Translations under genes and position numbers: made by a program | Source: Acinetobacter phage Ab15 | Length of the DNA stretch: 64,000 nt | Direction: 5' to 3' (one strand) | Sequence record: PP763259.1 | Notes under the pieces: model-generated | The model's input: only the letters and a program-made list of their open reading frames with translations | Database searches by the model: none | What the model was told of the DNA's origin: nothing | Shown: positions 2-35,428 of the stretch, piece by piece | Numbering within the stretch: position 1 is the first letter of the stretch | Layout: each line of letters opens with the position of its first letter

Positions 2-1147
2 ATTTCAGAAGTATCAACAATGAACCAATATGGACATTCTGTTCATGAGATTGTTTTAAGATACAGAAGATTTGAGGAAGGTTCACGATACAATGATGGT
101 AAGATCGGACTAAAATATTTACCAATCAGATCACAACACAGTATTGCTGAATGGGTTTATGACCCTAATGGTAGAACCTTGCTAGGTATTACTCAGAAGA
201 TTCCTCAAACTAAAAAATATATGGGTTATAAAGAAAAAGAAATCTTTATCCCTATTGAAAGTCTCTTAATTTTCAGAGTCAATCCTCAAGATGGTAGCCC
301 TATTGGGACAAGCCCTTTAGATGGATGTTATAGTGCTTGGAGATACTTGGTAACTTATCAAGAAATTGAAGGTACAACTGTTAGTAAAAACCTTAACGGT
401 GTGGGTATTTTTAAAATCCCATCTAAGTATATGGCTGAGCATGCCACTCCAGCAGACCGAAAGGTTTATGAGAATGCAAAACGTATTGTTTCTAATGTGA
501 ACAATGGTGAGCAAGCTGGTATGGTTATCCCTTCAGATTTTGATGAAGTTAGTGGTAAGCCTTACTTTGGTTTTGAAGTTATTAACTCTACAGCATCTAA
601 TACATCTGTTACAGGTGAGATTGTTAAAAGATACACCAATGAAATTCTTCAATGCTTGAGTGCAGATTTATTACAACTTGGTTCTACCAATACTGGTTCT
701 TACTCTCTTGCCGATAGTAAAACTTCTCTAGTAGAAACTGTAGTTGAATCTCGTATGATGGTTATTAAAGAATTAATGAATAGGAAGTTAATTCCAATCA
801 TTGCAGAAGCTAATGGTATGGATTTAGAAAGACTACCTAAATTTGAATTTGGTGATATCTCTAGACCAGACCTTGAGACTTTCGCTAAGGCAATCCAACA
901 ACTTACTGCTGTTAATATGGTATATCGCTCAGCACGTAATGTCAACAGAATTGCAGAGATTCTAAGTCTTCCTGACATGGTTGACCCTGATATCTCTAAA
1001 GAGGAACTTGACAAGTTACTTGGTGTTGACCAAGAAATGCAAAGTAAGAGTGGTAAAGGTTACGCTTCTGATACTGGTGGACTTAATGGAACATCAAATA
1101 AAGTAGCTAAGAAGGATAACTCAGCAAATAATTTACAAAATAAGTGA
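2..1147 (+). CDS. portal protein (5'-partial; reading frame open to window edge)
   Basis: 375-aa ORF whose frame has no stop upstream of the first ATG back to position 2. It lies immediately upstream of the protease-decoration-major capsid block. Call is by synteny and size only. Confidence 0.45.
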   Translation: MSEVSTMNQYGHSVHEIVLRYRRFEEGSRYNDGKIGLKYLPIRSQHSIAEWVYDPNGRTLLGITQKIPQTKKYMGYKEKEIFIPIESLLIFRVNPQDGSPIGTSPLDGCYSAWRYLVTYQEIEGTTVSKNLNGVGIFKIPSKYMAEHATPADRKVYENAKRIVSNVNNGEQAGMVIPSDFDEVSGKPYFGFEVINSTASNTSVTGEIVKRYTNEILQCLSADLLQLGSTNTGSYSLADSKTSLVETVVESRMMVIKELMNRKLIPIIAEANGMDLERLPKFEFGDISRPDLETFAKAIQQLTAVNMVYRSARNVNRIAEILSLPDMVDPDISKEELDKLLGVDQEMQSKSGKGYASDTGGLNGTSNKVAKKDNSANNLQNK

Positions 1148-1154
1148 GGTACTA

Positions 1155-2729
1155 ATGTCAAGAGCACACAGTATTATGCGCTTGAGTGAATCTGTTTTCA
1201 ATACCCCACAATACATGCTTCCAGAGCACTTTGAAAAGCTTACCAGTTATATGATTGATCGTAACACTGGTAAGTTAGCTTGGCAAGTAGATATTGGTGC
1301 TGAAAAAGAAAGAGCAGCAAAAGAAAAAGCTGAAAAGGATAAAGACAAGGTTTTAGCCTTAGATCCAGTTAAAGCAAATTCATTCAAACGACCTGACTTC
1401 TCACAGTATCCAGAAGAAACTCGTGAGCAAGCTCGACAAGATTATTATGACTTCATTCAATATGACCCTAAGAATAAATTAGGTGTTTTAAATATTGAAG
1501 GTACTACTGTTTACAGAAGTACCCCCTTCGAGGCTATGTGTGGGATGACCTCTTACCAAAGACTCGAACGTACTATCAAGGCACAAATAGCAGAGGGTGC
1601 TAAAACCATCCTCATGTATGTTGATAGTGGAGGTGGTGAAGCATTCGGAAATATTGAAACAGCAGTTAACTTGAGAAATATTGCAGATGCATCTGGGGCT
1701 AAATTAATAGCCTATATCGATGGTAAATCTGCTTCAGCAGCTTATGCTTTATCAGTAGTAGCTCATACAGTGGTAGCAAATCCAGACTCAGAAGTGGGTT
1801 CAATTGGGGTTGTTGCTTCACTGATTGAGGATACCACAAAAGAAGAAGGTATACAAACAATCACACTCTTTAGAGGTGATAACAAAGTAGCAACTGATGA
1901 TGAAGGACGTTTTAAAGAAGGCTTCATTCAAAGAATCAACAACACACTTGATCGTTTATATGGTGTATTCACAGGTCACGTAGCTAAGTACAGAAACATG
2001 GATGTCAAGGATGTTGTAGCAACACAAGCTTCTATGTATACCGCAGAGAAAGCCCTAGAGGTTGGCTTGGTGGATGTATTAATGACTCGTGCAGATTTCT
2101 TTGGTGATTACCTTCCAAGACAAACCCAAAGAGTTAACTCTTTAAGTTTCAGTCCGTTTGCTGAAACTACCAAGTTCAAAACAACATGTGAGGATGTAAA
2201 ACAAATGGACGTAAAAGATTTAGATTTAAACCAAAAAGATAATCCAGAAGTAGTAACCCTGCAAAAATCTGAATATGAAGATTTGATGACTAAGGTTTCT
2301 GCTACTGATGAACAAATTAAATTGGCTATTGATGCTGCATTAGCTGAACAAGCTGATACACACCAACAAGCACTTCAAGCATTACAAGCTGATATTGCAC
2401 AAAAAGAAGTTGACTTACAAGCTTTAACTGAACGTGCACAACTAGCTGAACAAAGTTTAATTGATCTAAAACATGAAACTTTAATGGCTGACCGCAGAGA
2501 AAAACTTGAGAAAGTTCTTGCAGTTGACCAAGTAGAAGGTGCAATGCAACTGGCTGCTACATTTAGTGATGAGCAATTCGAAGCTTATCATGCAACACTT
2601 TCAAGTGTTTACCAAAAATCAAAAGACAGTCTTAAAGAGAAGGGTACAAAGGCAAATGATGAAGAGCCTACCAAAGACTATTCTTCTATTTTAGGTGCTG
2701 CAATTCAAAAACACAATCAATCTCGATAA
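1155..2729 (+). CDS. prohead protease (S49/ClpP-like) with C-terminal coiled-coil scaffold-like domain
   Basis: SGGGEAF...GKSASAAYAL...SIGVV block typical of SppA/ClpP-fold head maturation proteases. C-terminal about 150 aa is Q/A/L/E-rich heptad coiled coil (QQALQALQADIAQKEVDLQALTERAQLAEQ). Confidence 0.65.
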   Translation: MSRAHSIMRLSESVFNTPQYMLPEHFEKLTSYMIDRNTGKLAWQVDIGAEKERAAKEKAEKDKDKVLALDPVKANSFKRPDFSQYPEETREQARQDYYDFIQYDPKNKLGVLNIEGTTVYRSTPFEAMCGMTSYQRLERTIKAQIAEGAKTILMYVDSGGGEAFGNIETAVNLRNIADASGAKLIAYIDGKSASAAYALSVVAHTVVANPDSEVGSIGVVASLIEDTTKEEGIQTITLFRGDNKVATDDEGRFKEGFIQRINNTLDRLYGVFTGHVAKYRNMDVKDVVATQASMYTAEKALEVGLVDVLMTRADFFGDYLPRQTQRVNSLSFSPFAETTKFKTTCEDVKQMDVKDLDLNQKDNPEVVTLQKSEYEDLMTKVSATDEQIKLAIDAALAEQADTHQQALQALQADIAQKEVDLQALTERAQLAEQSLIDLKHETLMADRREKLEKVLAVDQVEGAMQLAATFSDEQFEAYHATLSSVYQKSKDSLKEKGTKANDEEPTKDYSSILGAAIQKHNQSR

Positions 2730-2747
2730 TTAGAGGAAGTTCAACAT

Positions 2748-3212
2748 ATGGCAACTTTAGATTTAAATGCATTGTTTAATCTTGGTCACACCGAGTTTTC
2801 TGATGTTTTCCAGACTGAAGCTGGTACAACTATTGGTTATGTTCGTAAGAACATCACAGTAACAGGTACGGCTGGTACAACTTTACAAATCGGTCACATC
2901 TTACAAGATAATGGAGATGGTACTGCCACAATCCCTGCAACTACAGCTTCAATTACAAACCCTGTAATTTACTGTGGTGATGACCCTTACAAACAACAAG
3001 CTGATGGTAAGCGTGACTGGAATTCAAATACAACTGTATTCACAGCAGATAACCTTACACAAGATGTTGTAGTTGTTTATCGTGGTCGTGTTGGTGTAGG
3101 TACATCTTACCTAGTATTCCCTGCCGATGTAACTCCAACTACTCGTGCAGCAGTTTACAAAGCTCTTGACGACAAAGGCTTCAAGATCATCAGACAAATC
3201 GCTAAATACTAA
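2748..3212 (+). CDS. head decoration protein (lambda gpD-like)
   Basis: 154-aa Gly/Thr-rich beta protein directly upstream of the major capsid gene. Position and size match a gpD-like decorator. Confidence 0.5.
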   Translation: MATLDLNALFNLGHTEFSDVFQTEAGTTIGYVRKNITVTGTAGTTLQIGHILQDNGDGTATIPATTASITNPVIYCGDDPYKQQADGKRDWNSNTTVFTADNLTQDVVVVYRGRVGVGTSYLVFPADVTPTTRAAVYKALDDKGFKIIRQIAKY

Positions 3213-3317
3213 TTTTAAGATATTTACGAAAAATAGTCAAAAGGAATTGATGGTGGGTGGGATGAATTTGTTTCGCCACTCATCCCATAACACTTTCAAA
3301 TATGAGGAATTTATAAT

Positions 3318-4388
3318 ATGCCAACTATTCGCAATCCATTAGATTTCAGCACTACTCTTGATCTTACTGATGCTATTAATGAGATCGTACCAGAGTATGG
3401 TGCTTTTAACAACTCTGGATTATTTAATAAACGTGGTACAACTCAGGAAGCTGTACTTTACGAAATCAACCAAGGCGCTCGTAGCTCAATGGTTGGTACA
3501 ACTTCTCGTAGAGAACGTAACACTGTTAAAGACGCTCGTGGGCGTGTTAAACAACAAGCTCTCTACATTCCTTACATCAAACACAGCGCACAAATCGCTC
3601 GTGAAGATGTAGCGTATGTTGTACGTGACTGGAAAGAGCTTACTGTTGAATCAGTAACAGAGTTATACGTAGACAAGCTTGCAAGCTTACGTAGAAACTT
3701 AGAGCAATCTCATGAATATATGGCTGTAACAGCTACACAAGGTATCACTCGTGATCCTCTAGATGGTTCTGTGATTGTTGACATGTTCGCTATCAATGGC
3801 GTTACACAAACAGTTCATACTTGGAACTTCACTGACCCTAACTTCGACCTTATTGGTGCGATTCGTAAGTTAAAAACTGACTTAACTCGTGCCAACCTTT
3901 GGGGTGGTGTGATTCAGTCAGTGGACGTACCAGTAGGTGAAGCGTTGTTTAATGCTATCGTAACACACCCTCAATTAGCTGAACTTTATGTTCTTGCTAT
4001 GACTGGTCGTGGTCAAGAAGCAATCAACAACTCTCGTCCTTGGGCGACAGAAACAATGACTCGTTACGGTATTGCTTCTACGTTTACATTTGATGGTGTA
4101 CGTTTCATGACTTACCCTTCAACATTCCGTACAGAGCAAGGTGACTTGATTGAACCTATCGCTAATAACGAAGGTCACACAATTGTACGTGGTTTATCTG
4201 GTATGTATGAAGCTCGCTTCGCTCCAGACAACAACCTTGACACAATTGGTCAAGTAGGTCAAGAGATTTTCGCATGGCGTACTCCATTGATCGAACGTCA
4301 CCACTTCGAAATCATCACTGAAACAAGCCCAATCTACTTCGCTACACATCCTGAATTAATCTTCAAGATCGTAGGTACATTGGCTTAA
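3318..4388 (+). CDS. major capsid protein (lambda gpE-like)
   Basis: 356 aa, highly expressed-type codon usage (cgt, ggt, gct). Follows the decoration gene and is followed by a strong hairpin. Call rests on module order. Confidence 0.6.
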   Translation: MPTIRNPLDFSTTLDLTDAINEIVPEYGAFNNSGLFNKRGTTQEAVLYEINQGARSSMVGTTSRRERNTVKDARGRVKQQALYIPYIKHSAQIAREDVAYVVRDWKELTVESVTELYVDKLASLRRNLEQSHEYMAVTATQGITRDPLDGSVIVDMFAINGVTQTVHTWNFTDPNFDLIGAIRKLKTDLTRANLWGGVIQSVDVPVGEALFNAIVTHPQLAELYVLAMTGRGQEAINNSRPWATETMTRYGIASTFTFDGVRFMTYPSTFRTEQGDLIEPIANNEGHTIVRGLSGMYEARFAPDNNLDTIGQVGQEIFAWRTPLIERHHFEIITETSPIYFATHPELIFKIVGTLA

Positions 4389-4408
4389 TCAGTCAAATGA
4401 ATAACCTT

Positions 4409-4434
4409 CTAGGCTATCTTTCTAGGTAGCCTAG
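4409..4434 (+). terminator. hairpin after major capsid gene (ctaggcta / tagcctag stem)
   Basis: 8-bp perfect inverted repeat with 10-nt loop, 20 nt after the capsid stop codon. Weak T tract. Confidence 0.35.
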
Positions 4435-4505
4435 ATAACTTTATCTAAAGGCATTTCATAAGGTTTAGAGATGTTTTTACATAAAGTTATTTCTAGGAGA
4501 ATGTA

Positions 4506-5054
4506 ATGGCATTTACATATACAGGCGATCCATCAAACAATAAAATCGATGAGCTTAGATTACTCTTAGGTGACTTAGATGAAAGACAACCAATCTACCA
4601 AGATGAAGAGATTCAATACTTTTTAGATCAAGCTGATGGTAACGTGAAGGTAGCCTTCTACTTAGCTATTGGTGCTATGATTCCAAAGTTTACCCGAATG
4701 GCTAGAGAAAGGGCTGGACAAATCGAAGTTTATGCTGGTGATTACTTCAACCACTACTTACAGTGGATTAAGATGTTAATGAAGCCAACTTCACCATCAT
4801 TCCAGTTAAGAGAAGACGCTCTTTTTTACGGTGGTATTGAGAAGGCTCAGTCACAGCAATACTTCCTAGACCCTTCTATTGTTGCACAACCATTCTATAG
4901 AGGACAATTCTTCAGAATGCCAACTATGATGGGATATCGTAGATTAACCCCTACGGGATTCGCTGAGGTTGATGAAAGTGGAAGACTTTTAGGTTTTGTG
5001 AGGGATGTAGCACTACCAGCAGTTATTGATGATTCTGATGTGCCAAATCCTTAA
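4506..5054 (+). CDS. head-tail connector / head completion protein (hypothetical)
   Basis: 182-aa ORF in head-tail joining position. Confidence 0.35.
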   Translation: MAFTYTGDPSNNKIDELRLLLGDLDERQPIYQDEEIQYFLDQADGNVKVAFYLAIGAMIPKFTRMARERAGQIEVYAGDYFNHYLQWIKMLMKPTSPSFQLREDALFYGGIEKAQSQQYFLDPSIVAQPFYRGQFFRMPTMMGYRRLTPTGFAEVDESGRLLGFVRDVALPAVIDDSDVPNP

Positions 5055-5063
5055 GGAGTAAGT

Positions 5064-5669
5064 ATGGCTAGGGGTGGATTACCTGAATGGCAAAAGGCCA
5101 GATACAGAACAACATATGCTGGAAAGAAAGCCTATACGGTTAGACATAAGAACCTAACCATGCATGTGAATACTGAAAAGTTAGAAGCTCTGAAAGGTGA
5201 ACTTGTTAACCTATCTCTTCAACATTTACGTTACGGCATTGTAGATGACAATAGATATCCTACAAGTGACCCTAGAGGTAGAGGTGGGATGTATGTAGCA
5301 ACCATTTGGAAGCGTCTTGAGTTTGGTTCAGTAGATGAGATCAATGGTAAAGCCAGAGTTATTCCACCACGACCAACATTTACACAACATGTGCACACTG
5401 GTGGTAAAGGGACAGCAAAACTTGTAATGATGGATATCATGCACGATGTCTTTACAGGTAAATCTGTTAGGGATAAAGCATGGGTGAAGTTAGGTTTAGC
5501 AATGCAATCTCGTCTTAAATTCGATGTAATGACTCAGAAAGGTTTTGTTCCATTGAAGTTACCTAGTTGGTCCGATAGATCCCCAACAGACTTCTATAAT
5601 GATACAGGTCATTTAATTAGAAGTATTTCTTATCGAATTATGCCTATAGGTTTAGATTTTAGCAAGTGA
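5064..5669 (+). CDS. hypothetical structural protein
   Basis: 201-aa ORF, RBS ggagtaag upstream, in head-tail joining block. Confidence 0.35.
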   Translation: MARGGLPEWQKARYRTTYAGKKAYTVRHKNLTMHVNTEKLEALKGELVNLSLQHLRYGIVDDNRYPTSDPRGRGGMYVATIWKRLEFGSVDEINGKARVIPPRPTFTQHVHTGGKGTAKLVMMDIMHDVFTGKSVRDKAWVKLGLAMQSRLKFDVMTQKGFVPLKLPSWSDRSPTDFYNDTGHLIRSISYRIMPIGLDFSK

Positions 5670-22804: not shown

Positions 22805-25576
22805 TTATTGACAGTTATCACATTCTTCATGTCGCTTAATATCACCAGATCCCCTCATAGAGTAGATGTAGTATAAAGCTAAGATACCTGCATTTTCCAA
22901 AGCATATTTGTGAACCTTCATAATATACTCTGGAGTGTCATTACTTGTAAAATACAAGTTGATTGACTGTTGCTGATCAATATATTGTTGTCGTTGTGCA
23001 CACAAATCCAAATGTTTGATCATGTCAATCTCAAAGGCAGTTCTAAAGACATCCTTCTCATGCTGAGTCAACCAGTGAACATGTTGTACAGAACCTTTAT
23101 GCTTATTGATGTCATTGATTACGTCTTCATTGTAAACACCACGTTCCTTCATGATCTCTAGAAGGACCTTATTAACCCTCCAGATATCTCCTCCAGCACT
23201 CTGCTTAACGAACACCATAGCAACATCTAAACCAATACCTTCAGAAGCACCAGCCATAATCTCTGCTGTTGACTTTGTAGGTGGCATCATCATCGTTGTT
23301 GCATTACGGATTCCTAAATGAGCGCACCCTTCAGGCATACCAACTTCACGAGCCAACCACTTAGAAGCAGCTAAGGTTTGATCTCTCATACCCTTAAAGA
23401 TTTCTTCATTTAACCAGAAGCTCTCAAGGCTACCTACCACAATTCTACGTTTTTGTAGTAGTGTGTGGAAACCTAATACACCTGTACCAACTGCACGGAA
23501 TCTCTTGGTGAAGGCTAAGATTTTTCTAAATGCCAAGGCATCCTCTTTACCTTGCTTAGTTCGGTTTTCCATAAACTCGATGTAGTCACTCACATTACAA
23601 TCTTGCATTACATGTGCAATAAATGCTAAGTGAGGACATCTCGATTTCCACTCATCGTATAAGTCAAGGTTCAAGTTCAGAATTACACAAGAGAATGTAT
23701 GCTTCTCATCACTACCAAGTAACACTTCTTGGCAATTCATAGTATTCAAACCATTGAACATCAACATGTTACGTTTTGGCTCAAGTGCACAATATGTATC
23801 ATCAAATCTTCCTTGGTCGATCACTTCATCAACACATACAAATCTTTCAGCAGAACGTTGAGGTTTTCTTTCACTCCATTTTAGGCGGTGTGTTTTTAAA
23901 CCTAACTGACTCAACTTAAAGAGACCTGTACTCGATACAAGAAGACGATAAGCATCTTGGCATTCAAACAGTCCTTTATCACCCGTACCATTATTGAGAG
24001 GTAATTCTTTTAGACCACCTACATCCCTCAAGACAACCTTTGAAGAAACACCAAGTGTTTGTAACATCAATTGCACATCTTGTAAGAATGTCTTGTGAAT
24101 GCTTACCACTTGGATAGATTCATTTTCACCATTACGAGCAATAGTTCCATCTGAATCTAGGAGTCCAGCAAACCATTCCAATCGGCTTTCAACAGTGTAC
24201 TCAGATGTTGGTACAAAGAATTTATCCTTAAGTCCTTCACTGTGAGTAAGCTTAATACGATCACCACCTTGAAGTCCTGACACTGAAGAAACGCAAGTTA
24301 TATTTTCAAGTAACTCCTTCTTCTTACCATACAAGTATGTGTGTTTTTTACCTTTGTATTCAAAACCATCACCAGTGAAGAATCCATTAGTGTAAGCATG
24401 TTCGAGGGTCTTGTCACCTAAAATAACTGGTAGATCAAATTTAGATAGTCGATCACCAGACTTCAACTCGTAGGCACGTTTAATGACCTCATTGCCATCC
24501 TCACCAACAACCTTAAAGCGGTGATACTCTGTGCAATCTAATTCATACCCTGAATCAGTTACCACTTTAACTAACTTCTGATTTTCACCAGTTTTGATAA
24601 TTGTCACTTCAGACCATTCAAAACCATTCCACACCTCGACCTGTTGTCCCTCAAGGTCAGAAATCGTTTGATATCCACTTTTAGTTAAGATTAATGTCTC
24701 AGGTGAAACACACAAATTAGAAGCTTTCGCTGTCATACCTGCATCTTTAAATGCCTGAGCTAAGTGGCGGTTCATTTCATCAATCTTAGTGAAGTAACCC
24801 TTACCACGTTGCATCTTGATAGCAATAGCTTTAGCTAATAGGGCAACTGCTTCTGGGTCATCCTTGACTAACTTCTCAATGTACTCGTCCTTACATAACC
24901 ATGCTGGGTTATTACTTTCAGGTCGTTTGAATAAGTACTTTAAAACTTCCTCAAACTCGGGATGTTCAATACTTACAGCATAAGATAAACTACCTCTACG
25001 GCTACCTTGAACAACCTCATCCATACAGTTGATTAAGTCACGGATAAGAGGCATAACCCCACCACTGTAACCACCACGAGGTAGTTTCTTACCTTTATAG
25101 GCCCAATCATCAATTGAGTAAGATGTACCATGTGAGTGCTTAGTTAGGATAGCTGCTTCAGTCACACAATCATAACGAGAGAACAAGTCATCACCAACAT
25201 AACCGCTAGCACAACTTACTGTTGATCCCCTTTCAGGTAAACCACTGTTCGCCAATAAAGGAGTTGAACAAGACACATAACCATCCCAAAGTACGTCAAA
25301 AAACACCTCCTCCCAAGTTTTACCAGCCGTATAAGTATCCACATTCCACCAAGAAGGGTACTTATCTGGTGCATGTTTAGCTAAAGTCTTAGCAATCATT
25401 TTATAGCGAGCTTTTACAGTCTCACCATTCCACGAATACTTTTCAAAGAACAACTGAGTCCCACCAGTGGTAAACCATTTAGGGATCTCTCCATGTTCTT
25501 GTAGTTTTTTTCGAAGTTGACTGTAACTGTCAACCCCGTATAATTCCAATGTCTCTAAATAAGATAAAACAGCCAC
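22805..25576 (-). CDS. nrdA: ribonucleotide reductase large subunit (class I NrdA-like) interrupted by an intein
   Basis: Extein motifs VSCSTPLLANSG, SNL-[intein]-CQEVLL...FSCVILNLNL match the NrdA SNLCxEI...LCxLxxxNL active-site region. Mature extein length about 597 aa, no ATP cone. Confidence 0.8.
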   Translation of the reverse strand: MAVLSYLETLELYGVDSYSQLRKKLQEHGEIPKWFTTGGTQLFFEKYSWNGETVKARYKMIAKTLAKHAPDKYPSWWNVDTYTAGKTWEEVFFDVLWDGYVSCSTPLLANSGLPERGSTVSCASGYVGDDLFSRYDCVTEAAILTKHSHGTSYSIDDWAYKGKKLPRGGYSGGVMPLIRDLINCMDEVVQGSRRGSLSYAVSIEHPEFEEVLKYLFKRPESNNPAWLCKDEYIEKLVKDDPEAVALLAKAIAIKMQRGKGYFTKIDEMNRHLAQAFKDAGMTAKASNLCVSPETLILTKSGYQTISDLEGQQVEVWNGFEWSEVTIIKTGENQKLVKVVTDSGYELDCTEYHRFKVVGEDGNEVIKRAYELKSGDRLSKFDLPVILGDKTLEHAYTNGFFTGDGFEYKGKKHTYLYGKKKELLENITCVSSVSGLQGGDRIKLTHSEGLKDKFFVPTSEYTVESRLEWFAGLLDSDGTIARNGENESIQVVSIHKTFLQDVQLMLQTLGVSSKVVLRDVGGLKELPLNNGTGDKGLFECQDAYRLLVSSTGLFKLSQLGLKTHRLKWSERKPQRSAERFVCVDEVIDQGRFDDTYCALEPKRNMLMFNGLNTMNCQEVLLGSDEKHTFSCVILNLNLDLYDEWKSRCPHLAFIAHVMQDCNVSDYIEFMENRTKQGKEDALAFRKILAFTKRFRAVGTGVLGFHTLLQKRRIVVGSLESFWLNEEIFKGMRDQTLAASKWLAREVGMPEGCAHLGIRNATTMMMPPTKSTAEIMAGASEGIGLDVAMVFVKQSAGGDIWRVNKVLLEIMKERGVYNEDVINDINKHKGSVQHVHWLTQHEKDVFRTAFEIDMIKHLDLCAQRQQYIDQQQSINLYFTSNDTPEYIMKVHKYALENAGILALYYIYSMRGSGDIKRHEECDNCQ
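23735..24712 (-). mobile_element. intein (326 aa) with LAGLIDADG homing-endonuclease domain inside nrdA
   Basis: Begins CVSPETLILTKSGYQ (block A). LAGLIDADG-type motifs NGFFTGDGF and LEWFAGLLDSDGTI. Ends ...MLMFNGLNTMN followed by +1 Cys, which is the catalytic Cys of the NLC(x)E motif. Penultimate His replaced by Met. Confidence 0.8.
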
Positions 25577-25586
25577 AAATACCTCC

Positions 25587-26150
25587 TTACTTACTTCCTT
25601 GTAATCCTTTATTCTCTTCTGAATCTTCCATGATCAGCTTCAAGAGTTCTTCTTGTTCCTCTTGTTCTTTCTTCCTCATATTATTCCAAGCTTCTACAAA
25701 CATAGCCTCAGACCAGTTACTTTCATACTCTCGGTTTTGACCCTTAGTGAAGAAATCTGGCATCTGGTAACCGTATGTATTTAAGTTAAACATCTTAGCC
25801 ACTTTAGAATCCTTCTGAGTAACTTGAAACTCTTTAGGGATTTTATCTACAGGAACCTGCAAACGAGTCAAGAAAGTAAAGATTCGGAAGCGCACAAAAT
25901 CAATGTACTCGGCTGTTGTATACCCATTAAGTGAACCTGAAGGGATTGCCATATCAATGATTCGCTTCTCATGCTCTAACACGTAGTGGCAAGCTTGTAG
26001 TAACTTTCCAAACATTTCTTCATGCTCATGTAGAGGTTTCCCTACTTCATGGAAATAGGTGTTAAAATGTTCTGCGGCGTAAATTCCATGCAACATGGGT
26101 TGTTCAGGTGTGCTCGTTACACACACCCCGTAGAGTACTTCACCACTCAA
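25587..26150 (-). CDS. nrdB: ribonucleotide reductase small subunit, C-terminal exon (exon 2)
   Basis: 187-aa ORF with no ATG at its 5' end (track start is TTG). In-frame stop 13 codons upstream. Continues the ferritin-like fold begun in 26539..27306. Confidence 0.65.
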   Translation of the reverse strand: MSGEVLYGVCVTSTPEQPMLHGIYAAEHFNTYFHEVGKPLHEHEEMFGKLLQACHYVLEHEKRIIDMAIPSGSLNGYTTAEYIDFVRFRIFTFLTRLQVPVDKIPKEFQVTQKDSKVAKMFNLNTYGYQMPDFFTKGQNREYESNWSEAMFVEAWNNMRKKEQEEQEELLKLIMEDSEENKGLQGSK

Positions 26151-26538
26151 GTACTCACAGCTTACACTTTCATGTAAGATCAGACTATATCATCACCACA
26201 AGGTTTTACTTGTTGTGGTGCTTCCCACTTCGGTCTTACTTAAGACCTACTCCCCGAAGGGATAGTCGTTGAGGATTCTAAACCTAATTCCAACCACAAA
26301 GCTTTCCAACGTTTTTTATGCCTAATTAACGAAACATATCTAATGTATCCAGAAAATTTTGGATGTTTAAATTTTTCCATAATTACCTCCATAATAAGAG
26401 GTTGGAATTAGGTTTAGCTTTCCTGCTGATTGCCCAATACTTTAGATTTTTACTCAGTGTTTAAATTTTTCAACACTTCAGTACTAAAGTCTCTAAGGGG
26501 TTTCCAGCATTTCAAGAAGTTTATTGAGGACTTGCAAA
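26151..26538 (-). ncRNA. group I self-splicing intron (ORF-less) in nrdB; boundaries approximate to within 40 nt
   Basis: Minus-strand RNA contains R-like element CAACGACUAUC (fwd 26261..26271) and S-like element GAUAUAGUCUG (fwd 26181..26191), able to form P7 (GACUA/UAGUC). Also a CCCUUCGGGG tetraloop hairpin, a GGUCUUAAGUAAGACC hairpin, and a P9-like CUUACA-UGAAAG-UGUAAG hairpin just before exon 2. No ORF of 60 aa or more on either strand. Confidence 0.65.
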
Positions 26539-27306
26539 TTAATCCTCATCTAGTGCACTCTGGTTAGCAATTTGGGCAATAACTTTAATTAAGTTAAAAC
26601 CATTTGTCTGGAAGCTCTTAAGGATAGCAAAACTAGAGAACAACAAAGCTGTCTCTGTTAAAGAGAAGCACAAGCATGCAAGCATCTTGTTTTCATCTCG
26701 CATTAAACCATCTAACCATTCCATACGTTCATTGAGTACAGGGTCATCAATGTATGATGTGTAGTAATCATCAGTATCTAGTCCAAGTACAATGTTAATC
26801 TCATTGTACGTTCGTGCATGGACCATCAACTCAATCATTGCTAAAGCAGAAGCACCAGCACGGGATTCATGTCGAGGGAATACTTTAATGAATAATCCAT
26901 TCCAGAATTCATCACCAACAATTAATTCATACTGTAAGAATAAGTGTAGAACTGTTTTTACTGCATGTAGTTGCTCTTTAGTTAGCACATACTCAAGTTC
27001 CATCTGGTCATTCTTGACTTCCATTTCACTCTTAAACCACATCTGCTCTTCAAGCTGCTGGTCAGCAATCTCAAGAATCTTTGGGTACTTAATCTCATAG
27101 CCACTATTGGGTGATGTAATACGGGTTTGCACTAATCCAGTTTTCTCTGAATTTAATGTTTTGTTTATTGTCACATAAACGAATTTCCCTTCAGGGTTTT
27201 TCTCATCCTTGACATTGATGATAACCTTTCCAGCCGGTGGTGGTAAAAATCTAATCTTCTCAACCTGACCTTCGGTTAAATCCACCTCAATATTAATTTT
27301 AGACAT
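26539..27306 (-). CDS. nrdB: ribonucleotide reductase small subunit, N-terminal exon (exon 1; stop codon lies just inside intron)
   Basis: Contains di-iron/tyrosyl-radical region ...SALAMIELMVHARTYNEI... (Ex2H + Tyr register of NrdB) and ...CLCFSLTETALLFSSF... (second Glu ligand helix). ORF ends where the NrdB helix with the RDExxH ligands should follow. Confidence 0.7.
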   Translation of the reverse strand: MSKINIEVDLTEGQVEKIRFLPPPAGKVIINVKDEKNPEGKFVYVTINKTLNSEKTGLVQTRITSPNSGYEIKYPKILEIADQQLEEQMWFKSEMEVKNDQMELEYVLTKEQLHAVKTVLHLFLQYELIVGDEFWNGLFIKVFPRHESRAGASALAMIELMVHARTYNEINIVLGLDTDDYYTSYIDDPVLNERMEWLDGLMRDENKMLACLCFSLTETALLFSSFAILKSFQTNGFNLIKVIAQIANQSALDED

Positions 27307-32923: not shown

Positions 32924-35428
32924 TTGACAGACCAAAAGAAATATCACGTTTTTGCAGCAGACTTAGAAAGTACAGGTTTGCTTCATCATCTTGAAGAACA
33001 GGGTGAGAATGCCCGATTACACAACTTTGGTCTGTTATCTACCAAAAGTGATTCTTATGCCATTCTACATCCAATGGAACAAGAAGACCGTGAGAAACTT
33101 CAAAAGGTTTTAGATCGTGAAGATACTGTTTTGGTTATCCATAATGGTATCTGCTATGATATAGAAGCTTTAAAACATTTTAAATTTGATACTTCAAAAG
33201 TTAAAGTAATTGATACTTTATATCTTGCTTGGTACTTAGATTTCTTTAAGGAAGGTCGTTATGGCTTAGAGGCTTATGGTGAGTTGTTAGGATTTCCTAA
33301 GCCACCTATTGAAGATTGGGAGAATCTAACCCAAGAGGATTATGACCACCGTGTTTATGGGGATATTAAAATCCAGAAAGCACTTTGGTTAAAGCTTTGT
33401 AAGCAATTTGCAGAACTGTACAACATTCCAAATGATGAGTACATGGAGTCCCGTGTCATTGATCATTATGCAATGAAGTACATTATGTGGAAGGGTGAAC
33501 AGATGCGTATTCAACAAGAGAATATGTGGAAGTTCGACTATGAAAAAGCTGCACCAATGCTTAAGAAAATTGAGTTTCAAATCAATGAAAAGATTGAAGC
33601 TCTCACAAGTGTAATGCCGAAGGTTCCAGTCTATGCAACAAGAAAGCGTCCAGCTAAACCTTTCAAGCAAAATGGTGAGTTAAGCTCTACAGGTTTAAAA
33701 TGGAAGGAACTCACAGAGGAAATGAACCTGCCTTTTGAACATGCAGATGAAATCCGAGTGATTACTAAATATAATCCACCAAACCCAGCTTCACCAGCAC
33801 AGGTTAAAGATTGGCTGTTTGATTTAGGGTGGGTGCCACAAACCTACGAGTTTAAGAAAGATGACAGTGGTGAAAGGAAAATCCCTCAGATTTATGTAAA
33901 AGGATCTGGTGGTGAGGTTTGCCCATCTGTACAAGAGCTTGCAGAGCGATACCCAGAGGTTGGTCACTTGGTTGGCCTTGGTGTATTAAAGCACCGAAAA
34001 GGAATGGTAGCTAACTGGCTCAACAACCATAGAAATGGATACCTAACAGCCCGTGCTGCTGGGTTTACTAACACCTTACGCTTGAAGCATGCAGAGTTGG
34101 TAAATATTCCTTCTGGTCGTGTTTTCTTAGGTTCACAAGTACGTGCACTATTAACGGTGCGTGATGATGCTAACATTTTGTTAGGTTCAGACTTAAGTTC
34201 TTTAGAAAACCGATTGAAGTTCCACTTCCAGATGCCTCTTGACCCTGACTATGTTAAGGCCCAGATGTCTAAAGACTTCGATCCTCACTTATCCCTAGCT
34301 CTTCTTGCTGGACTACTCACAGAGGATGAAGTCAACTTCTACAAGATAGAAGAAAAAGGCTTTGACATGCCTGATGAAGTGTACACTGATGATCTCAAGG
34401 AGATGCTTGCTAAGAGTGATGATTGGAAACATACTGAATTGGCTCGTATTGAGAAGATACGTGGTATGGGTAAAGCTGGTAACTATGCTTGTTTGCCAAT
34501 GGATACTCAAGTTGCAATTATTGATACAAATAATTTTGGTTATGTGAAGTATGTCACATTTGATGATTTAAAAGATACGGACCGAATTGTTCAGTATTGG
34601 TCTGATTCTGGAGAATATACAGCAAGTCCTTATAAGTACAAACACTTCTATAAGGATGCAGAGGTTGTGACTGTAAAAATTAAACCTGATGGGATTGTGA
34701 CATTTAAATGCACTATGAACCACCGTTGGTTGGTGAGGTTTGATAATGGTCGTGAAGGTTTTGCTGAACTTTCAGATATCATTTCAAATAACTACGAAAT
34801 GAATTATGCTGGCGTGTGGGTAAAGGGTTCCGACTTAGAAATTATAGAAGTTACAAAAGAGGACGTTTTTTGTTTGACTACTGAAAGTTCATCATTCTTG
34901 ATTAAACAGGGTAGGTATTATTCGATTACTGGTAACTGTCAGTATGGCGCTGGAGCTAAAACTGTGGCACGTACAGCGAAGGTATCTTTAGATGTTGGTC
35001 AACAGATTGTTGAAGGTTATCGAATGATGAATTGGTCCATTGATGTTATTGCTTCTAATACATCAATTAAAAAGACATCCTTTGGTGATTTCCAGTTAAA
35101 CCCAATCAATAAGATGTACTATCCTCTCAAGACAGCTAAGGATAGATTCTCAACATTAATTCAAGGTAGTGGTGCCTATGTACTTGATCTTTGGTTGATG
35201 TTTATTTTTAAACGCTTGAAGTTAGCTCATCAAGTTGGTATTATGAAGGATGTTAAACTTCTAGGACAATTTCATGATGAAATAATCTTAGAATTCAATG
35301 AGTTACAGAAATCAGAAGTTGAAAAGTTGGTTAATGACGCTATGGGTGATGTTAATAACGCTTTAAAACTTCATGTAGATTTAGCATGTGATATTAAGTT
35401 TGGTAAAAACTACTCTGATATTCACTAA
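32924..35428 (+). CDS. family A DNA polymerase with 3'-5' exonuclease domain, interrupted by a mini-intein
   Basis: TTG start after aggaggt. Exo I motif FAADLESTG. Pol motif A LLGSDLSSLENR, motif C GQFHDEIILE. Motif B split as GKAGNYA-[intein]-CQYGAGAKT. Confidence 0.85.
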   Translation: MTDQKKYHVFAADLESTGLLHHLEEQGENARLHNFGLLSTKSDSYAILHPMEQEDREKLQKVLDREDTVLVIHNGICYDIEALKHFKFDTSKVKVIDTLYLAWYLDFFKEGRYGLEAYGELLGFPKPPIEDWENLTQEDYDHRVYGDIKIQKALWLKLCKQFAELYNIPNDEYMESRVIDHYAMKYIMWKGEQMRIQQENMWKFDYEKAAPMLKKIEFQINEKIEALTSVMPKVPVYATRKRPAKPFKQNGELSSTGLKWKELTEEMNLPFEHADEIRVITKYNPPNPASPAQVKDWLFDLGWVPQTYEFKKDDSGERKIPQIYVKGSGGEVCPSVQELAERYPEVGHLVGLGVLKHRKGMVANWLNNHRNGYLTARAAGFTNTLRLKHAELVNIPSGRVFLGSQVRALLTVRDDANILLGSDLSSLENRLKFHFQMPLDPDYVKAQMSKDFDPHLSLALLAGLLTEDEVNFYKIEEKGFDMPDEVYTDDLKEMLAKSDDWKHTELARIEKIRGMGKAGNYACLPMDTQVAIIDTNNFGYVKYVTFDDLKDTDRIVQYWSDSGEYTASPYKYKHFYKDAEVVTVKIKPDGIVTFKCTMNHRWLVRFDNGREGFAELSDIISNNYEMNYAGVWVKGSDLEIIEVTKEDVFCLTTESSSFLIKQGRYYSITGNCQYGAGAKTVARTAKVSLDVGQQIVEGYRMMNWSIDVIASNTSIKKTSFGDFQLNPINKMYYPLKTAKDRFSTLIQGSGAYVLDLWLMFIFKRLKLAHQVGIMKDVKLLGQFHDEIILEFNELQKSEVEKLVNDAMGDVNNALKLHVDLACDIKFGKNYSDIH
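34490..34936 (+). mobile_element. mini-intein (149 aa, no endonuclease domain) in DNA polymerase motif B
   Basis: Starts CLPMDTQVAIIDTNNFGY (block A), TMNHRWLV (block B, TxxH), ends ...FLIKQGRYYSITGN + Cys. Splicing it restores KAGNYACQYGAGAKT, equivalent to the RRxAKxxNFGxxYG O-helix. Confidence 0.8.

Follow-up and report, generated by a model that had tools for sequence, protein, structure and literature searches.

The analyzed window, a stretch of 64,000 nucleotides from Acinetobacter phage Ab15 (sequence record PP763259.1), contains a gene for a family A DNA polymerase whose motif B (the O-helix) is interrupted by an in-frame insert of 149 amino acids (aa). Fold, homology and anatomy agree that this insert is a mini-intein. 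Its catalytic residues are conserved, and alleles with an empty insertion site are present in other phages. We infer that the segment is very probably active and would splice in cis; the reaction and each of its chemical steps are presented below as a proposal.

The polymerase gene and its insert

Pfam analysis of the polymerase precursor revealed a DNA_pol_A domain and an RNase_H-like exonuclease domain. At the DNA level the gene is 99.9% identical to the gene labeled “DNA polymerase” in Acinetobacter phage Herod and 96.5–99% identical to its counterparts in phages Bestia, YMC13/03/R2096, P577, Mithridates and AM24. The carriers of the polymerase intein are ~97-kb myophages of A. baumannii, and a primase-helicase gene precedes the polymerase gene. 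In all seven GenBank records the product name is only “DNA polymerase” and the intein is unannotated. The features of the gene are listed below, with intein blocks numbered according to PMC2807308 and PMC5050341.

32924..35428, plus strand: family A DNA polymerase precursor gene, 834 aa, 96.1 kDa, TTG start, TAA stop (from the open reading frame (ORF) and Pfam)
32924..34489, plus strand: N-extein, aa 1-522, with the 3'-5' exonuclease, thumb, motif A and first half of motif B
34184-34213, plus strand: motif A, GSDLSSLENR, within the N-extein
34472-34489, plus strand: first half of motif B, KAGNYA, at the end of the N-extein
34490..34936, plus strand: mini-intein CLPMD...SITGN, 149 aa, 17.2 kDa (from translation, profile matches and the AlphaFold model)
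34490..34492, plus strand: Cys1, block A:1, putative N-terminal nucleophile (Cys in 211/212 related N-terminal intein domains)
34694..34735, plus strand: block B, IVTFKCTMNHRWLV, with Thr75 (B:7), His78 (B:10), Arg79 (B:11) and Trp80 (B:12)
34862..34909, plus strand: block F, DVFCLTTESSSFLIKQ, with Cys128 at F:4 (codon 34871-34873)
34916..34939, plus strand: block G, YYSITGN + Cys, with Thr147 (G:5), Gly148 (G:6), Asn149 (G:7) and Cys+1 (G:8, the first C-extein residue)
34937..35428, plus strand: C-extein, aa 672-834, with the second half of motif B (CQYGAG), motif C and the stop codon
35267-35284, plus strand: motif C, QFHDEI, within the C-extein

Translation of positions 34490-34936 yields 149 aa (CLPMDTQVAIIDT...TMNHRWLV...YYSITGN), in frame inside the 834-codon ORF, and a Cys codon (34937-39) follows directly. 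An earlier note, made from the letters of the sequence, had placed a mini-intein with blocks A, B, F and G at exactly these coordinates, with the same translation. The insert is located between NYA and CQYG of motif B. Virtual excision (removal of residues 523-671) produces ...GKAGNYA-CQYGAGAKT..., which can be aligned, junction included, with motif B of Pol I from M. smegmatis (RRRVKAMSYGLAYG, PDB 6vdc), lRRRVKAMSYGLAYG in 6vdc facing iRGMGKAGNYACQYG in the excised polymerase. Upon excision the Pfam DNA_pol_A match rises from 56.6 bits in two stretches (intact ORF) to 68.9 bits in a single stretch (residues 510-682), and the statement of the same note that excision recreates motif B is thus borne out. 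The G+C content of the intein (34.9%) is slightly lower than that of the exteins (38.4%).

The O-helix of the Klenow fragment reads R754-R-S-A-K758-A-I-N-F762-G-L-I-Y766-G. We take the insert to fall between the equivalents of G763 and L764, with Cys+1 replacing L764. The intein is positioned two residues past the equivalent of Phe/Tyr-762, a marker in phage PolA surveys. The insert separates O-helix residues that contact the incoming nucleotide. A polymerase that kept it should for this reason be inactive, and the functional enzyme must therefore arise by splicing.

The recognition of the insert as an intein was based on profiles and on predicted fold. Profile A1, built from eight splicing domains (the insert and its phage relatives), was compared with PDB, and the best match was the AceL NrdHF intein (6zgq; E=2.6e-11, positions 4-120 of 121), followed by Spl DnaX, NrdJ-1, DnaE, gp41-1, a bacterial intein-like (BIL) domain, RecA and hedgehog, among more than 40 intein, BIL and hedgehog entries. 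With profile A5, which contains polymerase-type members only, 6zgq was again first (E=1.9e-7). An AlphaFold2 model of the insert and its flanks (22-row alignment) is all-beta, with a mean pLDDT of 80.2 and a pTM of 0.75; in its core, from model residue 61 on, pLDDT is mostly >90. In a Foldseek comparison of this model with PDB, each of the top 50 matches is an intein or HINT domain; 6zgq takes rank 1, and the canonical class 3 inteins 6rix and 6bs8 are also among the matches.

Some results count against the identification. The single insert sequence matches no Pfam or NCBIfam intein model, phmmer found nothing for it in PDB, and the insert alone has no PHROGs match. These single-sequence searches were empty, so the recognition of the intein rests on a purpose-built profile. 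The intein HMM search proposed by the earlier note failed with the single sequence; only profiles gave relevant matches. Furthermore, the alignment supplied to AlphaFold consisted of inteins picked with our own profile, which favors a HINT model.

The anatomy of the insert is that of an intein. It has Cys1, Thr75-x-x-His78, a C-terminal Asn149 and Cys+1; Thr75, His78, Arg79 and Trp80 of block B align with S65, H68, R69 and M70 of AceL NrdHF, and Cys128 aligns with the catalytic C124 of that intein. Penultimate His, which is common in inteins but not obligatory, is replaced by Gly148. The endonuclease domain is missing, as previously proposed: only ~45 aa separate blocks B and F, the 149-aa insert yields no LAGLIDADG, HNH or PHROG match, and a gap appears at this place in alignments with LAGLIDADG-bearing relatives.

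Several other identities were considered for the insert and rejected. A chance resemblance inside an ORF does not agree with the profile and fold statistics, and an intron was dismissed because the insert is in frame and translated through. A BIL domain, which lacks a +1 nucleophile and only cleaves, is at odds with Cys+1, the terminal Asn and the insertion within an essential motif. A structural insert of the thioredoxin-binding type would have a different location and a different fold.

Empty sites and related inteins

A tblastn search of phage records with the spliced C-terminal half of the polymerase matched 261 phage records. Seven phages of the Herod/AM24 group match this query in two pieces, 447 nt apart. 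Acinetobacter phages of the genus Saclayvirus, whose polymerases are the next closest (56-58% identity), match it in one piece and have no insert; most of the other listed records are also one-piece, and over 200 further phage PolA genes give insert-free matches. The empty site of the Saclayvirus phage Liucustia is KIRGIGKSGNYALQYGSG (...GNYALQYG...), with Leu in place of Cys+1. The two-piece and one-piece polymerases constitute a classic occupied-site/empty-site pattern. In the phage, viral-contig and protein collections searched, the polymerase intein was found only in the seven-phage group and in one metagenomic fragment. A word-indexed protein search gave one match with the single intein sequence and six with the profile, and a related-locus search with a single protein matched only YMC13/03/R2096.

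The catalytic residues are identical in all seven intein-bearing phage genomes. In the N-extein, 24 synonymous and 3 non-synonymous codon differences separate the window from AM24, while intein residues 41-149 show 3-5 synonymous and 1 non-synonymous differences (3 and 1 in the comparison with AM24). The exteins and this part of the intein are therefore under purifying selection, a sign that the polymerase is used and that its intein has a constrained core. The N-terminal part of the intein is more diverse, and one further feature was defined there:

34508..34609, plus strand: variable patch, intein residues 7-40 (from codon comparison, an alignment gap and model confidence)

Of the 34 codons in this patch, 24 are different in AM24 and 21 in Mithridates, compared with 4-6 of 109 in residues 41-149. 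It forms a sharply bounded mosaic that includes W37C, the rest of the gene being 97-99% identical. The patch holds a loop insertion of ~7 aa relative to related inteins and is the lowest-confidence part of the AlphaFold2 model (pLDDT 67-69). It could result from gene conversion by another intein allele or represent a fast-evolving surface loop.

An explanation in which the insert is a decayed, non-splicing remnant, or a structural insert kept in the mature polymerase, has to be weighed against these data. It agrees with the absence of an endonuclease, with the failure of curated intein models to recognize the single sequence and with the absence of both penultimate His and the Asp at F:4; moreover, one inactive intein pseudogene is on record (PMC3196547). 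That pseudogene, however, had lost His B:10 and Cys F:4, both of which are kept here (PMC3196547). An insert retained between the equivalents of Klenow F762-G763 and L764-Y766 would be incompatible with dNTP binding, whereas the carriers are independently isolated, plaque-forming phages, all seven with the same intact set of catalytic residues, and selection acts on both the exteins and the intein core. A remnant is thus extremely improbable.

The 3' end of polA varies among these phages. In AM24 (KY000079) it has been swapped for a divergent variant (the C-extein is 60% identical overall), and a gene for an HNH homing endonuclease directly follows polA (2552-3073 of the locus stretch); this HNH gene is lacking in the window, Herod and Mithridates. 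The metagenomic fragment P0001 combines an intein C-terminus identical to that of the window with an AM24-type divergent polA 3' end. Free-standing HNH genes are also found directly 3' of polA in Liucustia (3405-3947), VH-8 (1223-1509), vB_CoeS_P1 (4231-5025) and SD2 (4615-5211; all in locus-stretch coordinates), and they occur both with and without a polymerase intein. Homing endonucleases seem to have a hotspot at the 3' end of polA.

When phage genomes were searched by tblastn with the insert, weak matches were obtained inside other phage PolA genes and in the ribonucleotide reductase (RNR) beta gene of a Vibrio phage. The relatives have common ends, C[LV]P[VM]D...T..H.W...DVFC[LI][ST]T...[IL]TGN|C. 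Vibrio phage vB_CoeS_P1 carries a 133-aa mini-intein at the identical PolA site (NYA|C...LTGN|CVYG), and Escherichia phage nieznany carries, also at the identical site (KYG|C...LTGN|CTYG), a 324-aa intein with LAGLIDADG motifs. In Pseudomonas phage KIL3 a 331-aa LAGLIDADG intein is located four residues upstream of the site used in the window. These three inteins are up to 69% identical to that of the window in blocks F-G, compared with 26-33% overall, and have Lys (KIL3), Met (nieznany) or Ser (vB_CoeS_P1) instead of Arg at B:11. In SD2, phi92 and KP13-16, a 245-aa intein directly follows motif A and motif B is uninterrupted (KSVKYGITYGAQ); only this motif A intein of the SD2 type is annotated as an intein (SD2 GenBank product “intein-containing DNA polymerase precursor”). 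Acinetobacter phage ME3 has a relative at another PolA site, and the relative in RNR beta belongs to Vibrio phage C-ZP2022. Because LAGLIDADG-bearing relatives occupy the same or an adjacent site, the data suggest that the polymerase mini-intein is an endonuclease-less, degenerate descendant of a LAGLIDADG intein that is now inherited vertically in the phage group.

The annotation of two of these polymerase genes is unusual. In KIL3 (KU130128) the polymerase (819-4073) and the adjoining primase/helicase are each entered as a join of two pieces, the form expected of intron-containing genes, while the polymerase ORF is actually continuous through the LAGLIDADG intein. In ME3 (KU935715) the polymerase is annotated as two coding sequences (CDSs; 1356-4151 and 4445-4708), the first of which ends shortly past motif B; this points to another interruption, either an intron or a gene split, on the downstream side of the ME3 intein.

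For a broader view, profile A3, composed of the two inteins of the window (the second, in RNR alpha, is described below) and three metagenomic relatives, was searched against 1.84 billion representative proteins. A threshold of E<=1e-3 gave 3757 matches and one of E<=1e-10 gave 1343; the window polymerase scored 113 bits. Residues were counted in 174 pairings of N- and C-terminal domains (163 distinct inteins) parsed from the best 150 of the 3757 proteins; the counts therefore describe the top-ranked neighborhood of a profile in which three of the five seeds are RNR-type.

Position 1: Cys 174/174 (211/212 by a looser criterion)
B:7: Thr 174/174
B:10: His 174/174
B:11: Lys 121, Arg 27
B:12: Phe 121, Trp 43
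F:4: Cys 172/174
G:5: Thr 160/174
G:6: Gly 151/174, His only 5
G:7: Gln 91, Asn 83
Position +1: Cys 170/174

The complete Trp-Cys-Thr (WCT) triplet of block positions B:12, F:4 and G:5 occurs together with Cys1 and Cys+1 in 40 of the 163 distinct inteins. Judging from these counts, a Gly-Asn end, a block F Cys and a WCT triplet combined with Cys1 are ordinary in a very large lineage. Most members of this lineage are carried by phages. The earlier note was right that the intein ends in Gly-Asn (Gly148-Asn149) rather than His-Asn. By its distribution among the relatives this ending is a lineage trait, neither a defect nor the sign of a switch, and the idea that Gly-Asn marks a crippled intein was rejected since Gly is the clade consensus.

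Most inteins of the A3 clade are located at the SNL|C site of ribonucleotide reductase. These share with the polymerase intein Cys1, TxxH-[KR]-[FW], Cys at F:4, a Thr-Gly-[Asn/Gln] end and Cys+1, but they differ in host protein and site, about half of them end in Gln, and their identity to the polymerase intein is only ~17-24%. In some metagenomic proteins (P0069, P0003) inteins of the clade are arranged in direct tandem, ...VTGN being followed by the next Cys1; P0069 contains three tandem inteins within residues 42-1224.

Class assignment and the proposed splicing route

Trp80 (B:12), Cys128 (F:4) and Thr147 (G:5), a feature absent from the earlier note, together make up the WCT triplet known from class 3 inteins, and they are accompanied by Cys1, Arg79 and Cys+1. 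In class 3 inteins the block F Cys, and not residue 1, attacks the N-terminal junction, and WCT is their signature (PMC2807308, PMC5050341). The window intein therefore combines traits of two classes: Cys1 and TxxH are typical of class 1 but the usual Asp at F:4 is replaced by Cys128, and the WCT triplet is that of class 3 but position 1, which should lack a nucleophile, is Cys. Hoffmann et al. select class 3 inteins by the lack of an N-terminal Cys together with a Cys at C2:4 (PMC7891396), and “Class 1 inteins with Cys at F4” are a recognized category (PMC3196547).

The closest solved relative, AceL NrdHF, is an atypical class 3 intein, yet 163/163 of the nearest metagenomic relatives begin with Cys. 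AceL NrdHF is a proven class 3 split intein from RNR beta of a phage-like Antarctic contig (PDB 6zgq; PMC7891396). It has Ala1, Ser65 (B:7), His68-Arg69-Met70 (B:10-12), the essential Cys124 (F:4), Thr144-Gly145-Asn146 and Ser+1; Arg69 touches the C-terminal scissile carbonyl and its replacement (R69A) slows splicing, while G145H is inactive through a clash with Arg69 (wild-type half-time ~3.8 min) (PMC7891396). It resembles the window intein in size (~146-149 aa), in the absence of an endonuclease, in its phage-like source and in having His-Arg at B:10-11, Cys at F:4 and a Thr-Gly-Asn end. It differs in being split and in Ala1, Ser B:7, Met B:12, Ser+1 and its RNR beta host, whereas the window intein is contiguous, with Cys1, Thr B:7, Trp B:12, Cys+1 and a polymerase host. 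Pairwise similarity of the two was undetectable without a profile (phmmer vs PDB).

The canonical class 3 inteins (mycobacteriophage Bethlehem DnaB, M. smegmatis DnaBi1 and M. chimaera DnaB1) have WCT, an association with phages and the HINT fold in common with the window intein. They differ from it by lacking a position-1 nucleophile and Thr B:7, usually having Ser/Thr+1, keeping the penultimate His and residing mostly in P-loop ATPases (PMC2807308, PMC6195587). The intein of Bethlehem gp51 (RDF), likened here by features and not by sequence, comes from a phage, belongs to class 1 and likewise has Gly as penultimate residue and a host protein of DNA metabolism (PMC5050341); unlike the window intein it contains an endonuclease, and its host protein is unrelated. 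It splices completely, and G316H slows its splicing (PMC5050341).

According to the proposed scheme, the insert would be translated within the 96-kDa precursor and then excised autocatalytically, giving a 79-kDa polymerase and a free 17-kDa intein. Ala522 would be joined to Cys672 and the O-helix K-A-G-N-Y-A-C-Q-Y-G rebuilt, with the junction peptide ...AGNYACQYGAGAK. The reaction would start with an N-S acyl shift by Cys1 at the Ala522-Cys1 bond, aided by Thr75 and His78; the thioester would be transferred to Cys+1, Asn149 would cyclize, and an S-N shift would create the peptide bond. By analogy with AceL NrdHF, Arg79 (B:11) probably stands in for the missing penultimate His. Cys128, at F:4, appears from the alignments to be a conserved active-site residue, placed where class 1 inteins have Asp and class 3 inteins their initiating nucleophile. 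On balance we favor Cys1 as the initiating nucleophile, with some reservation.

That reservation has several sources. The WCT triplet (Trp80/Cys128/Thr147) is complete, and the nearest solved relative, by both profile and predicted fold, is the proven class 3 intein AceL NrdHF. The invariance of Cys1 was counted in the best-scoring 150 proteins and is mildly biased toward the consensus of the profile itself. Lastly, Arg at B:11 is not universal in polymerase-type relatives (Lys, Met and Ser also occur), so the compensation of His by Arg may not be general.

The first two of these points would also fit an active mini-intein in which the N-terminal junction is attacked by Cys128, or Cys128 accepts the acyl group of Cys1, leaving Cys1 dispensable or auxiliary. 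A block F branched thioester would then form at Cys128 and be passed to Cys+1. In the clade Cys F:4 is as invariant as Cys1 (172/174). Tori & Perler (2011) reportedly described some inteins as using the class 3 route. On the other hand, Cys1 is present in 211/212 relatives, while accepted class 3 inteins vary at position 1 (Ala, Pro, Gly), a contrast that speaks for Cys1 being selected as a nucleophile. Thr B:7 (TxxH) is a class 1 pattern that is not conserved in class 3 (PMC7891396), B:12 is mostly Phe in the clade (121 vs 43 Trp), and the +1 residue is Cys here, in contrast to the Ser/Thr of nearly all class 3 inteins (PMC2807308). In addition, WCT grafted onto the class 1 gp41-1 intein gave no class 3 intein (PMC7664689). 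We regard a class 3 or relay route as a real but minor possibility; stated more specifically, an acyl relay from Cys1 through Cys128 to Cys+1, or initiation by Cys128 with Cys1 kept for some other reason, is doubtful. If such a reading were true, a class 3 mechanism of the AceL NrdHF type would have arisen inside the clade by mere loss of Cys1, the origin of class 3 chemistry there would be independent of the canonical class 3 clade, and this would argue against the convergence of class 3 from a cysteine protease (a proposal made in PMC7664689).

The second intein of the window and the significance of the findings

The window contains a second intein, which ends in Met-Asn; the earlier note had correctly described a second intein with a non-canonical penultimate residue.

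22805-25576, minus strand: RNR alpha gene, containing an intein at residues 289-614
23735-24712, minus strand: LAGLIDADG intein of RNR alpha, 326 aa, at the SNL|C site (SNL|CVSPETL...TEYHRF...TYCALEP...LNTMN|CQE)

Its Pfam matches are LAGLIDADG_3 (1.8e-10) and Intein_splicing (1.2e-5, below the Pfam cut-off). Both inteins of the window have Cys1, TxxH-Arg, Cys F:4, Thr G:5, a non-His residue at G:6 (Met in RNR alpha) and Cys+1, and their joint profile recovers a large clade in which precisely this set of residues recurs. Their identity, however, is ~16-24%, and hhalign comparison of the polymerase-type and RNR-type profiles, which gave a probability of 97%, covered only the N-terminal 71 columns. 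The best solved matches of the RNR-type profile are the Tvo VMA and CDC21 inteins; AceL NrdHF, the best match of the polymerase type, is not among them. The proposal that the two inteins are of related lineage is thus retained in part: the shared signature and joint clade make a common broad lineage plausible, while a specially close kinship is only partly supported by the sequence comparisons.

The RNR region contains a further interruption. Between the two parts of the RNR beta gene (minus-strand ORFs 26539-27306 and 25587-26150) there is a group I catalytic intron (26161-26575, minus strand; Rfam RF00028, 54.9 bits, E=3.3e-11), and the GenBank records list two separate RNR beta-subunit CDSs.

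From the penultimate residues of the two inteins, conditional splicing had been suggested as a regulatory switch for replication. The polymerase intein might then be a redox- or temperature-dependent device that delays replication, for example through a disulfide among Cys1, Cys74, Cys128 and Cys+1. Four cysteines are indeed placed at or beside catalytic positions (C1, C74 at B:6, C128 at F:4 and C+1), two replication-linked enzymes of the phage carry inteins of the same signature, and splicing of the class 3 intein M. smegmatis DnaBi1 is blocked under H2O2 by a reversible disulfide of its F:4 Cys (PMC6195587). By this analogy a redox toggle via the cysteines is conceivable, as speculation. 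The penultimate residue itself does not serve as a hint, since Gly is the consensus at this position (151/174) and tested Gly-penultimate inteins splice fast and fully, a change to His being detrimental (PMC7891396, PMC5050341). Delaying its own polymerase would also bring a lytic phage little, and the intein-free sister phages do without the intein. We consider such a switch improbable.

DNA polymerase I and phage replication proteins are already known as intein hosts (PMC4760082, PMC5050341), and phage inteins with a non-His penultimate residue, like block F cysteines, are known as well. In the literature searched, no earlier description of inteins in AM24/Herod-like or phi92-like PolA was found. 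What is new is the recognition of the polymerase intein and its placement beside AceL NrdHF in a large Cys1/Cys-F:4/TG[NQ] clade. The intein is a correct and fairly ordinary find, and the question that it raises about class 3 evolution is worthwhile but incremental. A clade that has a class 1 nucleophile and the full class 3 triplet, and is abundant in metagenomes, is handy for studying that evolution. The intein is also a candidate engineering tool, being a compact 149-aa element, presumed to splice in cis, with Cys1 and Cys+1 and a relationship to the fast AceL NrdHF.

For the phages themselves, the true polymerase would be a protein of 685 aa and not 834, and inteins left unexcised near the equivalent of Phe/Tyr-762 will corrupt PolA alignments and trees. 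Since replication of these phages would need splicing of the intein, it may represent a point of vulnerability.

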